Shown here in pieces: positions 5,071 through 11,143 of a stretch of DNA of 64,000 bases (positions within the stretch are counted from its first letter, which is position 1; each line of letters begins with the position of its first letter). Position numbers and translations under genes: made by a program. Origin of the DNA: a bacterium. GTDB taxonomy: Bacteria; RBG-13-61-14; DATKZS01. The stretch spans positions 1 to 64,000 of the forward strand of contig CAXXFL010000002.1 in NCBI GenBank assembly GCA_963674965.2. Reading direction: 5' to 3'. Below the pieces are notes generated by a model, which saw only the letters and a program-made list of their open reading frames with translations, had not been told where the DNA came from and searched no databases.

Positions 5071-6504
5071 CTGAACTTTAGAACTTTTTAGTCTGGTTTG
5101 CACGTATCGACATTAAGCAGCCTCCTTGAGGGGCGTAATTTCCTCTGGTTTGGGGTCGGAATGGAAAGCGGGAGAAATTCGCAAAGCCTTGTAGAAAGCG
5201 CGTCGGAGCCGACCGACGCTTGGGGGGCCGCTCGGGTCCCACCACGGTTCGGCCTCGATCTTTTCCGCCTCCGGGACGCAAAGGGCAAGCAGGCCCAAAA
5301 GGCCGTAGGCGACCAGGCAGAGGTTGGCGTGGCGCTTGATGGCCGTGAACGACCTCTGGCGATAGTCGCCGAAACCGCCCGCCGTCTTCACCTCCCGGAA
5401 CAACTCCTCGATCTTCCAGCGGCCCGAATACGTTTCCAGCGCCCGCTCCGGCTTCATCTCGACGTCGGTGGTGAAAAACACGTTCATTTTTTTGCCGGAG
5501 CGCCGGGGGAAAATGATGACGAGTATCGGCTTGTCGCCGAGGGTGGCGCTGGGGACCATCACCCCGACGAAGGCCTCGATGGTAACGGTCTTGCCGTAAA
5601 TCCTGGCCTTGATTTTTTCGCGCTTCGATCTTTTCAACCACAGTTGTTGGGGGCTGAACTTCTTGCCGCGCTTGGGCGGCCTTCCCGGACCATTCTTCCT
5701 TTTGGGGAGTTCGTAGAGCGCCGCGTTCGAGCGGAGGCGGCTGATCAGGACCACCTCTTTGCCGTCGAACTCGAGACCGGCCAACTTGGCCTTGGCGTAG
5801 AGGTTGTCCACCACCAGGACCAGTCTCCGAGCGGGCCAGGAGAACCTTTTTATCATCATGGCGGCCAACTCGATCTTGGTTTTGAACTCCCATCCCTTGG
5901 GGCAAAACTTTTCCTGGACGAAGAGCAGCGCCGAGAGGGGGAAGGCGAACCACTTGCCCCCGCGCTCCCATAGAAGCGCCATCACCACCCAGCAGTGGCC
6001 GAGCACCCGGCGCTTTTGATGGCCGGGGTTTTTGTCCGTCGGGTCCGGGTAATAGCCCAGACCGAAGAACTTCTTGCCCCATTTCTTGACCAGGGTGTCG
6101 TCGACGGCGACGACGATCTCGTCCATGATCTTGAGTCGTTGGGCCACCAGGTCGAGCAGGCATTGACTCACCTTTTGGCAGGACCACCGGCCCTTGCGCA
6201 TGAAAGCGTAGGGCGTGGTCCAGTGCATGACCCGGTGGACTTGGGTGAGGCGCATGACCTCGGTCACGCAGTGCTGGAGACCGAACAGCGCCGCGTGGGC
6301 GATAATGAAGGTCTGGAAGTGCTCGAACCCGGGCTTGGAGAAGCAGTTGACAAATACAAGCATCAGCGGCAACATAAGAGCTTGAGCGTTCATCAGCGTT
6401 CACTCCCGCGTTATGAGGGCCGATCACACCTCTCATTATACGGGAAAAACTGGTGAACGCTATTTTTACATGGTGGAACATGGCTAAAAAGTTCTAAAGT
6501 TCAG
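5071..6504 (-). mobile_element. IS4/IS701-like element, copy 1 (1434 bp)
   Basis: Terminal IR CTGAACTTTAGAACTTTTTAG; 8-bp duplication TAATAATA. Confidence 0.93.
5113..6393 (-). CDS. DDE transposase (IS4/IS701-like)
   Basis: VAVDDT, VVDNLY, YSGRWKIEELFREVK. Confidence 0.9.
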   Translation of the reverse strand: MNAQALMLPLMLVFVNCFSKPGFEHFQTFIIAHAALFGLQHCVTEVMRLTQVHRVMHWTTPYAFMRKGRWSCQKVSQCLLDLVAQRLKIMDEIVVAVDDTLVKKWGKKFFGLGYYPDPTDKNPGHQKRRVLGHCWVVMALLWERGGKWFAFPLSALLFVQEKFCPKGWEFKTKIELAAMMIKRFSWPARRLVLVVDNLYAKAKLAGLEFDGKEVVLISRLRSNAALYELPKRKNGPGRPPKRGKKFSPQQLWLKRSKREKIKARIYGKTVTIEAFVGVMVPSATLGDKPILVIIFPRRSGKKMNVFFTTDVEMKPERALETYSGRWKIEELFREVKTAGGFGDYRQRSFTAIKRHANLCLVAYGLLGLLALCVPEAEKIEAEPWWDPSGPPSVGRLRRAFYKALRISPAFHSDPKPEEITPLKEAA

Positions 6505-7329
6505 TAATAATAAAATAGACGATATATTGCGGGTATGGTCAACCAACGGACAAATAATTAGAAGTGACGTTCCTATAGTTTTCAAAACAAAAAGCTGTAC
6601 GGCATTTGCAATGGTACCGGAAGAAGATTCACTGAATCTCAAGTTCGCAAATAAGTATGTCAAGAGGGAACTAACAATTCTTAAACAGATAGGGCTACGA
6701 TTACATTTAGTAAAAATTCTCGGTGAGGAAGCGGAGCTAAGTAGTATTGACAGTTGTAAAAGTCCAACATGGCTTATCATGTGGCCTAGATATCTAGAAC
6801 CTCCACTTCGATGTGGCGATCATTTTCTACCTATCCCCTTGTATAGACTCTCCCCATCTAATAATGATGAGATATACTATGACGACATTTGCTTTTGGCA
6901 TGAAGCCTATAGAGCTTTCCATTACATCTGGACATATGGCACGGGAGAAAGATATGCATATCGCCAGCTTTCAAGCCTGAATAGTAAGCTTACAAAAGAA
7001 GGATTAAAAGTCAGGGAACGCATTGAGTCTTTAACTCGCACACCGACGTATTATTTTTTAGATCGTATTTATGGCAGAAGTTTAAAACAGGAAAAAGCAA
7101 GACGTTGTCCTTCTTGTGGAGGGGCATGGATACAGGAGGAACCAATTCATGGCAGGTTCCATTTTAAATGTGAAAAATGCAGGTTATTAAGCACCACTGC
7201 TGATTGGTTCTCATAAGGAGTGGAAAGGATAATAATTTATGCGCCGGTGGTTGACGCTCCCGCAGACTACAAGGACTACAACAGGTAACCCATCTATGAA
7301 AGCAAATTGTCAACCCTGGACGGTCTCAT

Positions 7330-7680
7330 CCTCCAGTTGCCAAAGCTTTTTCTTCTTTCCGTCTACCCTCCTTTACCCGAAAGAATCATGACCGGAGGAC
7401 CGAGCGGGCGAGGGACGGAGGGCGGGATTGTTTCGGGTCAATCCCATGACGGAAAGATGAAAAAGCGCCCCCCGGTCCGTGCCTCCCTCCAACCATCTAT
7501 TCGAGGTCAAGAGGTCGTAAGCCTCACGAATACGTTCGGTGTCCCGGCGTTGCTCCATACACATAGAAGGCCTTCGCGGCCACGGGTTACCAAGGAGTCG
7601 CCGAAAACTATTTTGGAGTGACACGGATTCTCGCGCCTCCTGGCCCGCCCTCAAGCCGGCCAAGTCACGGACGCGACCTC
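7330..7680 (-). ncRNA. Putative bridge/seek RNA of the IS1111-type element (ends approximate)
   Basis: Internal loop 7553-7597 carries GGTAACCCG and CTATGTG, matching both halves of the target; ATAGATG (7494-7500) matches the circle junction. Confidence 0.7.
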
Positions 7681-7686
7681 AACGAG

Positions 7687-8772
7687 TCAAACGGCCTCCT
7701 TGATCTTCCAGTAATACTTCCTCGTCTTGACCTTGCTCGTGGGCGTCACGTTGAGCTTGCCCGCGTCGAATTCCTCGCCGTCCAACATCATTCTCCACAT
7801 GACGCGGCAAAGCCGCTGGGCCACGCAGACCACCGCCTTCTTGTAACCCTGCCTCGCCGCCACCCGGGCGAAATACGGGTTGAGGGGGTGAGTGGGACGG
7901 CCCGCGTGATGGGCCGCCTCCACCAGCATCGAGCGGGCCTCCGAGGACCCGCGCTTGGTGATACGGCCGTGGACCACCCGGTCGCCGCTGTCCCAACTGG
8001 ACGGACAGAGTCCAAGGTAGCTTACCGCCTGGCCGCTCCGCTCGAACCGCCCGGCGTCGGCGATAACGGAAAGAAAGGTCGCCGCCGTCACCGGACCCAC
8101 GCCGGGGACGGTCTGGAGCAGGGGATAAGCATCGGCGAAATGGGCGCCCGCCTCCTTTTCGATTTTCTTGTTCAAGCGAGCGACTTCCTCCGAGACCTGA
8201 CGCCAGGTCCGAAAGTGCATCCGCAAAAGGTCGCGCTGGAAGGAGTCCGGGCAGGACTCCAGCGCCCGCTTCCAGCCTGAGGCGGTGTTCAGGCGGAAAG
8301 ACACTCGAACTCCCTCGCCCCGCAAAAGGGCCTTGGCCGAGTTGACCTGGGACGTCATTTGGCGGATGAAAAAACGGCGGCGGCCGAGCAGGGACCGCAG
8401 GCGGCGAACGGACCGGCCGGGCACGTAGACGCGGCTGACGTAAAGATCGCGGCGCAGACCGTCGCAAATCTCGAGGGCGTCGCGGCCGTCGCTCTTCTGG
8501 TTGGGGCGGAGCGACTTGGCCCGCACTTCGGCGGCGTTGATCACGTAAGGGTGAAACCCCAGCTCGGAGAGTTGCTCGCTGACCCAAAAGGACTGGGCCC
8601 CGCTCTCCAGGCCGGTCTTGATCCCGAGCTCGCCTCCGAGCCGGCCGAGAAGTTCCTCGAAGCCGGCGCGGTCGGTAGCCACGTCCCCCCGGGCGATTAT
8701 TTTTCCGTCCTCCTCCTGGGCCACGAACACCGTCCTCCTTGAATGCACGTCCAATCCGAGATAAGTTGTCAT
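7687..8772 (-). CDS. IS110-family DEDD recombinase/transposase
   Basis: YLGLDVHS, GLESG, KSDGRDA, TVPGVGPVTA, YLGLCPSSWDSG, GRITKRG; GGGAGG RBS before ATG at 8772. Confidence 0.95.
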   Translation of the reverse strand: MTTYLGLDVHSRRTVFVAQEEDGKIIARGDVATDRAGFEELLGRLGGELGIKTGLESGAQSFWVSEQLSELGFHPYVINAAEVRAKSLRPNQKSDGRDALEICDGLRRDLYVSRVYVPGRSVRRLRSLLGRRRFFIRQMTSQVNSAKALLRGEGVRVSFRLNTASGWKRALESCPDSFQRDLLRMHFRTWRQVSEEVARLNKKIEKEAGAHFADAYPLLQTVPGVGPVTAATFLSVIADAGRFERSGQAVSYLGLCPSSWDSGDRVVHGRITKRGSSEARSMLVEAAHHAGRPTHPLNPYFARVAARQGYKKAVVCVAQRLCRVMWRMMLDGEEFDAGKLNVTPTSKVKTRKYYWKIKEAV

Positions 8773-8904
8773 TGGGCTGTACCTCCCTTCATTTATTTGG
8801 GGCCCTGCATTGCAACCCCTTGGTTTACGGTTATACCTCAAACCGTCTTGGAGGACAGCCCGCTTTCATGTTTACACATTGCCCTCAGGCGTGAGACCTC
8901 CGGC

Positions 8905-9086
8905 GTAACCCATAGCTTTTGCTATGTGGGCGAGCATAGCGAGCAGGTCGCGTGGTACCAAGAATGGGGGTTGCCGCTCTCCCGCGGTTATGCTTGGAGA
9001 ATATGAAGTCGCGGGTCGGGTATTAAAGTTATACGCGCCGACCTGCTCCCTTCGGTCGCCCACATAGGCGAGCTATGTGGGTTACC
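8905..9086. repeat. Inverted pair of REP-like hairpin repeats (REPIN-like)
   Basis: GTAACC(CA)CATAG..CTATGTGGGCGA..GAGCAGGTCG at about 8905-8951 and its inverse at about 9033-9086. Confidence 0.65.
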
Positions 9087-11143
9087 CGTTCGGACGGGTG
9101 ACGTGCGTGGTGAACGCGGGCAACTCGGTGGTGTCTTATGAATACGACGGCATGAACCGGCCTTGGAAGAGGAAGTATTGGGCCGGGTCGAGCTGCGCGA
9201 ACAAGGGGTCGCTTCTGAGGACGATCGAGGTGGGGTATATTGGCGGGCGGATCGATTATATTAAGGACGACAAGGTTGGGGGCACGGCGCTGGATTACGA
9301 GTATGACGAGTACTTTCGGGTTTCGTCGGTCGAGCAGACGGTATGCGCGGACGCGGGTTGCGGTTCGACGGTCGGGGAGACCGTGTATTATGAGTATGAC
9401 GCCGGGGACCGGGTGACGAGGATGGCGACGGCGGACGGGGAGACGGTTGAGTACGGGTATTACGACGACGGGTCGTTGCGGGTGGTGAGCAGGAACGGGA
9501 CCACGGTGGCGGAGTACGAGTACGATCAGCAGGGCGCGCGGAGCAAGGTTACGCGGTACCGGGCGGACGGGGTGACGACGTCGTCGGCGACGGAATACGG
9601 TTACGACGAGCAGGGGAGATTGACGGACATCCATCACAAGGACGGGAGTACCACGCTGTCGAGGTATCAGTACGAATACGACTCGGGCGCCAACGCCAAG
9701 GGGCAAAGGACGGCGCAGGCGCGGACCTTGAGCGGTTCGTCGGTGCGGGTCGAGTACGAGTACGATTCGTTTTATCGGCTGTCGAGGGCGGGGACGTGGG
9801 ACGGCTCGACGCTGGAGTACGAGTATGATACCCTGGGGAATATCCTGTCCGTGACCGAGGTCGACGGCGGTTTCGACCTGGAGGAGGAGACGTACTTTTA
9901 CGATAGTTACGGGATGAACCGTTTGGAGGCGATCTGGTACGACATGGACGCTGACGGGGACACGTCGGAGCCGGCTGATTACGTGGTGCGGTACGATTAT
10001 AATGACGCGGGGTCCATGTCGGCACGGGACGTGATTAACGGTACCACGACGGTGGAGGCTCGGGATTATTATTATGACGCCGACGATATGCTGGTGGAGG
10101 TCAAGGAAGGCTCGACCACGGTGGTGGAGTATGTCTACGACGCGCTTGGGCGGCGGGTGCTGAAGGACCTTGGGACGGAGGAGACGATTTATTTTTACGA
10201 CGGCGAGGATATCGTGCAGACGTGTGACGGGGCGACGGTGGTAGGCCGCTACGTCCACGGCCCCGGCATAGATGACGTGCTGCAAGATATAGAATCTGGT
10301 GGCTCAAACTTCATCCTGACCGACGGTCTCGGTTCCCTCACGGAACTGGAAGCCAACGGCTCCCTCACCATGCGCTCCGAATACTCCCCCTTCGGCGACC
10401 AAAGCATTACATATGATCCCAACTCCATCGGCCTAGGCGGCTACGGGTATACAGGAAGAGAGTATGATGAAGAGACCGGGTTGATGTATTACAGATCGAG
10501 GTATTATAGTACGGAACAGAGGCGGTTCGTGCAGGAGGATAAATTTGCCGGGATATTAATATGGCAAGTCACTTTTATTAATAAATACACATACGTCATA
10601 AATGATCCCATTAATTATACCGATCCAATGGGTCTTTACATAGGGCAATTGCCGCCCTACCCTAAAGGCTATAATCCAGATACATGGATACATGGATTTC
10701 GTGCAGACCGCCGAACTGGCAAACTTGAGCGGTACCTTCAGGATCCAGAGACCGGCAGGACGTATCGACCTCATGCGGAAACTGACAGTCATTTTAGGCA
10801 TAATGACTGGACGGATCCGGGTGGAGGAAAGGGTGGAAGAGATCCCAAAAAATCTCTAAAAAGGAGACCGAATCAAAAGAGACCAGCCTATGGTGACCAA
10901 TCAGAAACCGATCCTAATGGTTGTGAACCCGAGGGATGGGGTATTGAAGATATAGATAGATGGGACCCGGATAAGAACCACAATGCCGTTGGGTTTTCAG
11001 AAGATCCGTTATTGGATTGGATGATGGGGTATGGCGGGAAATATCCAAGATTATTTTTCCTGCCGATCATCCCTTGGTTTCCAATACCAGGATTTGCCCC
11101 GGCTACTGTGCCCTTTTCGGCGCCCGTGCCCGTACCGGCGTAA
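9077..11143 (+). CDS. 5'-truncated Rhs/YD-repeat protein with C-terminal toxin domain
   Basis: Multiple YEYD..GR repeats, GYTGREYDEETGLMYYRSRYY core, DPMGL boundary, AT-richer CT; the ORF starts inside a REP, so it may be a pseudogene. Confidence 0.88.
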   Translation: MGYPFGRVTCVVNAGNSVVSYEYDGMNRPWKRKYWAGSSCANKGSLLRTIEVGYIGGRIDYIKDDKVGGTALDYEYDEYFRVSSVEQTVCADAGCGSTVGETVYYEYDAGDRVTRMATADGETVEYGYYDDGSLRVVSRNGTTVAEYEYDQQGARSKVTRYRADGVTTSSATEYGYDEQGRLTDIHHKDGSTTLSRYQYEYDSGANAKGQRTAQARTLSGSSVRVEYEYDSFYRLSRAGTWDGSTLEYEYDTLGNILSVTEVDGGFDLEEETYFYDSYGMNRLEAIWYDMDADGDTSEPADYVVRYDYNDAGSMSARDVINGTTTVEARDYYYDADDMLVEVKEGSTTVVEYVYDALGRRVLKDLGTEETIYFYDGEDIVQTCDGATVVGRYVHGPGIDDVLQDIESGGSNFILTDGLGSLTELEANGSLTMRSEYSPFGDQSITYDPNSIGLGGYGYTGREYDEETGLMYYRSRYYSTEQRRFVQEDKFAGILIWQVTFINKYTYVINDPINYTDPMGLYIGQLPPYPKGYNPDTWIHGFRADRRTGKLERYLQDPETGRTYRPHAETDSHFRHNDWTDPGGGKGGRDPKKSLKRRPNQKRPAYGDQSETDPNGCEPEGWGIEDIDRWDPDKNHNAVGFSEDPLLDWMMGYGGKYPRLFFLPIIPWFPIPGFAPATVPFSAPVPVPA

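Follow-up and report, generated by a model that had tools for sequence, protein, structure and literature searches.

RNA guidance of IS110-family transposases was established in 2024, and the IS1111 group of this family is defined by subterminal inverted repeats of about 7-17 base pairs (bp) with short terminal extensions (PMC11208160). In the account of Siddiquee et al. (2024; PMC11187229), the IS1111 RNA lies downstream of the transposase gene, with its top-strand match placed 5' of its bottom-strand match, and the transposases are 330-350 amino acids (aa) long and bear GL-P----S(t)G as their C-terminal motif. Durrant et al. (2024; PMC11208160) describe right-end bridge RNAs predicted for 93.0% of ISfinder IS1111 elements, the donor-binding nucleotides being often located in a multi-loop. 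Here, a locus of this type is described from a bacterium (GTDB lineage RBG-13-61-14; DATKZS01), within a stretch of 64,000 nucleotides (nt) comprising positions 1 to 64,000 of contig CAXXFL010000002.1 (GCA_963674965.2), hereafter the window, to which all positions refer unless another contig is given. The insertion sequence at 7293-8876 is very probably an intact member of the IS1111 group, with a DEDD/Ser transposase guided by an RNA from the non-coding region at its right end, and it is apparently active.

The transposase is encoded by the sole long gene of the element, and its product matches PF01548 (E 3e-17) and PF02371 (E 5e-22), the DEDD/RuvC-like N-terminal and IS116/IS110/IS902 C-terminal domains, respectively. 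It scores 219 bits (cut-off 140) against the NCBIfam model NF033542, 'IS110 family RNA-guided transposase', in agreement with the IS110/IS1111 identity given in an initial annotation of this DNA. Residues D8, E56, D95 and D98 are invariant in an alignment of 26 sequences (the window transposase and 25 relatives), and the motif GLCPSSWDSG occupies residues 254-263, where S262 is a serine in 22 and a threonine in four of the 26 and G263 is invariant; the equivalence of these residues to D11/E60/D102/D105/S241 of IS621 was judged by position and motif, not by structural alignment. Comparison with solved structures matched the C-terminal half alone (ISCro4, E 1.9e-10; IS621, E 4.2e-10). A protein search returned 789 matches at E <= 1e-30, the best non-self match being 66% identical, with a transposase length of 359-405 aa in the listed relatives and an identity of at most 32% for plasmid-borne relatives among the matches listed; the annotation of two such plasmid-borne relatives reads merely 'IS110 family transposase'. 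In a set of 60 other genomes, matches at E <= 1e-40 occurred in two only, both broken by contig ends.

Compared with the IS1111 elements with right-end seekRNA as they are presented in PMC11187229 (ISEc11, ISPa11, ISKpn4 and ISPst6), the window element has in common the DEDD transposase with the GL-P----S(t)G motif, the subterminal inverted repeats with short extensions, the extended non-coding region behind the gene, the guide order and site-specific insertion without duplication, a likeness that is based on the stated features of the group. It differs from them in its target sequence and in the length of its transposase (361 aa against 330-350 aa). The position of the RNA downstream of the gene, which the initial annotation had taken as the IS1111 arrangement, is the layout found both by Siddiquee et al. 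(PMC11187229) and here.

The junctions of the element read GGTAACC-CA/TCTATG... on one side (7284-7292 for the flank and core) and ...GTTTA-CA/CATTG on the other (8875-8881), the slash marking the joint, such that removal of the element yields GGTAACC-CA-CATTG, exactly as initially annotated. The span of 7284-9086 proposed there for the element needs correction: the element itself occupies 7293-8876, and 8877-9086 belongs to a repeat of about 200 bp. The subterminal inverted repeats are complementary at 12 of 16 positions and share a perfect 8-bp core (ATGAAAGC/GCTTTCAT), and the non-coding ends are markedly unequal, with 394 nt downstream of the transposase gene (7293-7686) against 104 nt upstream (8773-8876). 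A search of the element's own genome (6.5 Mb) gave 23 matches, among which four are full-length and 100% identical over about 1.6 kb, indicating recent movement. In the orientation of the window plus strand, the four full copies are inserted at GGTAACC-CA/CATTG (the window copy), GGTAACC-CA/CATAG, GCGTAACC-CA/CATAG and GTGAACC-CA/CATAG; the last of these lies outside the repeat, which implies that the sequence is recognised and not the repeat as such. Furthermore, a truncated right-end copy (C7:767052-767208; 157 bp, 99% identity) and a truncated left-end copy (C2:90343-90411; 69 bp, 97% identity) are still joined to target-like sites, and with these mapped, all four full and both truncated copies in this genome occupy sites resembling GTAACC-CA-CATAG. 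In contigs from four sequencing runs, neither a joint spanning the element nor a circle junction was seen. Fragments 82-87% identical to portions of the element ends were also noted at C1:9817-9996 and C5:429766-429930, and in the latter the left-end and right-end pieces of a diverged relative adjoin each other.

When the element is subtracted and one CA is kept, the resulting sequences are present uninterrupted elsewhere in the genome. Joining the flanks through a single CA therefore gives sequences that occur as empty sites, insertion has duplicated none of the target, and element and target have the core CA in common (TG when read along the gene). The 14-mer GGTAACCCACATAG has four unoccupied occurrences in the 6.5-Mb genome, against about 0.05 expected; one of them is the window site at 9073-9086 (CTATGTGGGTTACC), which lies 197 bp from the element and had been recognised as a perfect empty site. 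The window copy itself resides in a one-mismatch site, GGTAACCCACATTG (GGTAACC-CA-CATTG), and this variant is uninterrupted at two other genomic places, in keeping with the suggestion of a CA/TG core with one mismatch tolerated. The window element occupies one end of the ~200-bp repeat, the remainder of which (8877-9086) contains the empty site. The ends of this composite repeat bear a hairpin (CCACATAG-loop-CTATGTGG) beside GTAACC(CA)CATAG, and one end holds a second, degenerate site, GGTAACCCACATTG; further copies are located at C1:590024-590240, C2:618941-619020, C2:624403-624620 and C7:766990-767050, and CACATAG and CATAG are each carried by seven repeat copies. A reading of the target as GTAACCCATAG with a 2-bp duplication (the variant occurs seven times) was rejected because the guide reads CACATAG and CA-containing sites occur uninterrupted.

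Downstream of the transposase gene, an RNA of about 156 nt is conserved in position and structure. Here, RNA positions are numbered such that the window position equals 7630 minus the RNA position. Downstream regions from 57 genome loci and 80 metagenome loci were aligned, and in a 14-sequence MAFFT seed 85.3% of the cells pair with the consensus partner, as against 37-50% when the partners are slid; compensatory changes are seen in 19 of 29 pairs, and none of 500 shuffles matches the observed score. In the consensus, a long-range helix, P0 (RNA 4-8/149-153 and 12-17/138-143), encloses two branches: a stem-loop, P1-P2-P3 (RNA 27-85), whose large internal loop is the putative target-binding loop, and a small hairpin, P4 (RNA 104-129), whose flanking single strands constitute the putative donor-binding loop. 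The minimum-energy fold of 7474-7629 (minus strand) as a single sequence also reproduces the target internal loop; thus, folding and covariation of the downstream region both recover the loop proposed in the initial annotation. The size of the RNA falls within that of the 'long' seekRNA forms, for which a review table gives 148-172 nt.

A covariance model (R1) built on the 14-sequence alignment was searched against 96 sources: besides the window itself, these comprised 78 metagenome loci (out of 80) and 17 genome loci (out of 57), after exclusion of duplicates from the same genome, fragmentary or distant loci and two whose sequence stops at the gene. Matches lie directly downstream of the gene encoding the transposase in 90 of these sources (94 matches). 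The matches comprise 89 distinct sequences, and in their alignment, which was fitted to R1 and is hence biased toward the structure, 91.2% of the cells are paired (38-49% with slid partners). Distant relatives, with transposases 24-32% identical, gave weak matches at the same place, at E <= 1 in 12 of 24 sources and at E <= 0.01 in eight. A scan of 7000-9300 against Rfam, at E values up to 1, found no matching family. Four loci from Acidobacteriota and Gemmatimonadales (L065, L066, L070 and L083), with transposases 27-31% identical, were observed to have a weak R1 match at the same downstream position, and hence this RNA architecture may extend well beyond the clade; a weak match (E 0.15) behind an unnamed IS110-family gene of a Klebsiella plasmid was not counted as evidence.

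The sequence of the first stem-loop can be read directly against the target. The minus strand from 7597 to 7553 is CTCC-TT-GGTAACCCG-T-GGCC-GCGAA-GGCC-TT-CTATGTG-TAT-GGAG, in accordance with the initial reading, and the 5' side of its internal loop (7593-7582) presents UU-GGUAACCCG-U, the 3' side (7568-7557) UU-CUAUGUG-UAU. Against the target in gene orientation, CTATG-TG-GGTTACC, the 5' guide forms eight Watson-Crick pairs with the top strand, sets a G opposite the core T and then makes one further pair. Among 200,000 mononucleotide shuffles of the 394-nt region, only six contain GGTAACCC followed by CTATGTG within 60 nt, and the match of loop and target is well above chance. The 3' donor guide, AUAGAUG, is situated after hairpin P4 and ahead of the 3' strand of P0; it corresponds to the ATAGATG (plus strand CATCTAT) noted earlier as a match to the predicted circle junction, and its sequence is that of the right end followed by the core. 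In the scoring applied to all relatives, the window element obtains 7/7 for the 5' target guide, 4/7 for the 3' target guide, 7/8 for the 3' donor guide and 5/9 for the 5' donor strand. The hairpin loop GCUUACGA (7515-7522) was also considered as a left-end guide and was rejected because the closest relative, L087, with a transposase 64% identical, has a different loop that is unlike its own left end.

Evidence that the loops follow the DNA that they would read comes from the relatives. Subterminal inverted repeats were located without using the RNA, with success in 65 of 90 RNA rows; five loci with visibly wrong repeat calls (L040, L116, L117, L134 and L153) and loci short of flank were dropped, leaving 54, and once identical guide pairs had been collapsed, 50 guide sets remained, in which 45 different right flanks and 44 different left flanks are represented. 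The cognate mean for the 5' target guide against the right flank is 4.76/7 (non-cognate 2.19), and that for the 3' target guide against the left flank is 4.24/7 (non-cognate 1.84). The corresponding means are 5.98/8 (non-cognate 4.32) for the 3' donor guide against the right-end tip and 5.82/9 (non-cognate 4.20) for the 5' donor strand against the core and left-end tip, the covariation of loop and end being weaker than that of loop and target. In each of the four comparisons, none of 2000 permutations attains the observed mean, and a 5' target guide score of at least 6/7 is reached by 25 of 50 cognate but only 21 of 2450 non-cognate pairs. The core dinucleotide itself varies among the relatives (TG, CG or GG); in 45 of 50 sets the one in the 3' target guide is also that of the left junction, and in 42 of 50 the 3' donor guide and the right junction have the same one. 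Thus, the proposal that the internal loop carries guides for both target halves is borne out by positions that follow the flanks in 50 elements, and the AUAGAUG positions likewise covary with the right ends of the relatives. Moreover, the 3' donor guide reaches 2 nt into the target flank in 17/50 cognate against 310/2450 non-cognate pairs; an equivalent 'handshake' extension on the 3' side of the target loop was not enriched (17/50 cognate, 761/2450 non-cognate).

A scheme for transposition can be drawn by analogy with IS621 and ISEc11. The element would be excised as a circle in which the right end, TG and the left end are joined, and this junction would set the right-end TTGACA 17-18 nt from a -10-like TAAACA(T) of the left end, creating a promoter that would drive the transposase gene and the RNA behind it. 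Of 56 relatives, 19 have TTGACA at the same right-tip position, and 32 have TTGAC followed by any base there. The RNA presumably transcribed from 7474-7629 (minus strand) would be bound by the transposase, and in the complex one loop would engage the donor junction and the other the target. In the target loop, GGUAACCCG would pair with the top strand of (T)G-GGTTACC and CUAUGUG with the bottom strand of CTATG-TG, and in the donor loop AUAGAUG would read the right end and core, its 5' counterpart being weakly complementary to the core and left-end tip. Recombination would then take place at the common TG (CA) core, without target duplication, with protein binding and strand-exchange chemistry that probably resemble those of IS621 and ISEc11. 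As described for the IS621 bridge RNA (PMC11208160, PMC11208158), there is a target loop and a donor loop, each reading one strand per side of the core, as well as a 2-nt core common to donor and target in which one position is almost invariant and the other variable; the 2-nt reach of the 3' donor guide into the target flank resembles the 'handshake' bases of that system. In contrast to IS621 as presented in these sources, the element has its RNA at the opposite end, and relative to the gene the guides follow each other in reverse order; the donor guides belong to a multi-branch loop that a long-range helix closes, where IS621 has a plain internal loop; the inverted repeats are long; and in place of CT the core is TG, CG or GG, which the other strand shows as CA, CG or CC.

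Several observations weigh against the reading of the element as an RNA-guided member of the IS1111 group. The transposase, at 361 aa, exceeds the 330-350 aa quoted for IS1111 transposases; the stability of the fold is unremarkable (z -1.46 for 7474-7629 and -2.19 for the whole non-coding region); and a promoter and terminator scan of 7200-9000 found no sigma-70-like minus-strand promoter to start the RNA. At the level of the guides, the 5' donor strand of the window fits the left end at five of nine positions only, and 25 of 50 relatives score 5/7 or less for the 5' target guide in a fixed register, in which elements with other extension lengths score low. The counts themselves were made after the five loci with wrong end calls had been taken out by eye, the permutation tests count related elements as independent, and the larger RNA alignment carries the bias mentioned above. 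The poor fit of the window's 5' donor strand is also what favours a target-only 'seekRNA', with the protein recognising the ends through the subterminal inverted repeats and the AUAGAUG match reflecting ancestry, promoter constraint or pairing after exchange. The donor-side contrasts, lower than the target-side ones, point in the same direction (although they are smaller because the ends are conserved across relatives), as does the report by Siddiquee et al., in the form given in PMC11187229, of 82-96-nt RNAs bearing target matches, with emphasis on the inverted repeats. Nevertheless, the donor-side matches surpass every permutation, at least eight states of the right-end tip (AGA-TG, AGA-CG, AGG-GG, AGG-CG, GGA-CG, GGG-TG, AAA-GG and others) have their counterpart in the RNA, and the core agrees at the right junction in most sets, as given above, which makes a target-only role unlikely.

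The lack of an internal promoter in the scan would equally suit a fossil, i.e. real complementarity that records past activity, with the RNA no longer expressed or the protein inactive. However, the four identical copies, an open frame of 361 aa with all catalytic residues conserved, and perfect sites that are still unoccupied make such a relic very improbable. There is even less to commend chance resemblance or a DNA-level relic without RNA, for example a copy of the target captured in the element. The non-significant stability of the single-sequence fold fits it, but the rarity of both matches among the shuffles, the compensatory changes in the helices and the loop positions that follow the flanks in the 50 guide sets render it exceedingly improbable. 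An RNA reading both donor and target thus remains the preferred explanation for the window element.

A second instance of the guide principle is found in the same genome. At C7:511594-511743 (minus strand, L171), a degenerate guide RNA and right end (42 bits) have no transposase gene upstream. The 5' guide of this copy, GUGGGUGGCCCU, is unlike that of the window and fits its own flank, TG/GGCCACCC, over 9 nt, and this is an independent case of a guide matching its own flank; its 3' donor guide, AAUAGAUGGUU, does not differ from the one in the four active copies. If still made, this RNA could conceivably redirect the transposase and circle of the active copies in trans to a second class of sites, an outcome to which we assign a low probability; were it true, guide modules would evolve and spread separately from the enzyme. 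A comparable situation is described for ISPpu9 of Pseudomonas putida (PMC12288879), which, according to that source, inserts into repetitive extragenic palindromes, has a small-RNA gene downstream of its transposase and is accompanied by extra RNA-only copies in the genome (here one), its host and sequence being unrelated to those considered here.

Table 1. Coordinates of the element, its guide RNA and its target sites in the window.
Feature	Position	Strand	Basis or remark
Insertion sequence	7293-8876	-	1584 bp including one core copy; junctions and four 100% identical full copies
Transposase gene, 361 aa	7687-8772	-	PF01548 and PF02371; D8, E56, D95, D98; GLCPSSWDSG
Conserved guide (bridge/seek) RNA, ~156 nt	7474-7629	-	Covariance model R1, 113 bits; covariation
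Target loop, 5' guide GGUAACCCG	7583-7591	-	Predicted to pair with top strand of TG-GGTTACC; 7/7 flank positions
Target loop, 3' guide CUAUGUG	7560-7566	-	Identical to left target CTATG and core TG; predicted bottom-strand pairing
Donor loop, 5' strand	7527-7544	-	Weakly complementary to core and left-end tip; window 5/9
Donor loop, 3' guide AUAGAUG	7494-7500	-	Identical to right-end ...AT-AGA and core TG; window 7/8
Target half-site GGTAACC (7284-7290) and CA core (7291-7292)	7284-7292	+	Right-end junction; TG-GGTTACC in gene orientation; recurs in other copies
Right-end subterminal inverted repeat	7296-7311	-	Plus strand ATGAAAGCAAATTGTC; 3-nt terminal extension 7293-7295
TTGACA, -35-like hexamer close to right tip	7308-7313	-	Fixed position in relatives; putative promoter role
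Left-end subterminal inverted repeat	8854-8869	-	5-nt extension 8870-8874 (GTTTA); core CA 8875-8876
Target half-site CATTG	8877-8881	+	One mismatch against guide-encoded CATAG; uninterrupted GGTAACCCACATTG found elsewhere
Perfect unoccupied target GGTAACCCACATAG	9073-9086	-	Far end of the same ~200-bp repeat

Other genes lie close to the element. A second, unrelated transposase gene (DDE_5/DDE_Tnp_1, 426 aa) is located on the minus strand at 5113-6393, about 900 bp from the element, and a gene for a DUF2310 zinc-ribbon protein (E 2e-61) on the plus strand at 6527-7216 ends 68 bp ahead of the target half-site. On the other side, an RHS-repeat open reading frame of 688 aa (9077-11143, plus strand) has its first possible start codon within the unoccupied target site. 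This frame may represent an RHS gene that is an orphan or lacks its 5' part, with the repeat as its border.

The description of this locus as a new recombinase-RNA pair is apt only in the sense of a new member of the family; as a principle, RNA guidance had already been published in 2024 and would not surprise a specialist. The value of the locus lies in one cleanly decodable recombinase-RNA pair together with a clade of about 50 natural sets of guides, targets and ends from uncultured bacteria. Such sets can aid in working out the rules of IS1111-type RNA guides, with respect to register, the choice of core (TG, CG or GG) and the multi-loop donor site, as well as in the choice of orthogonal enzymes for DNA-insertion tools.

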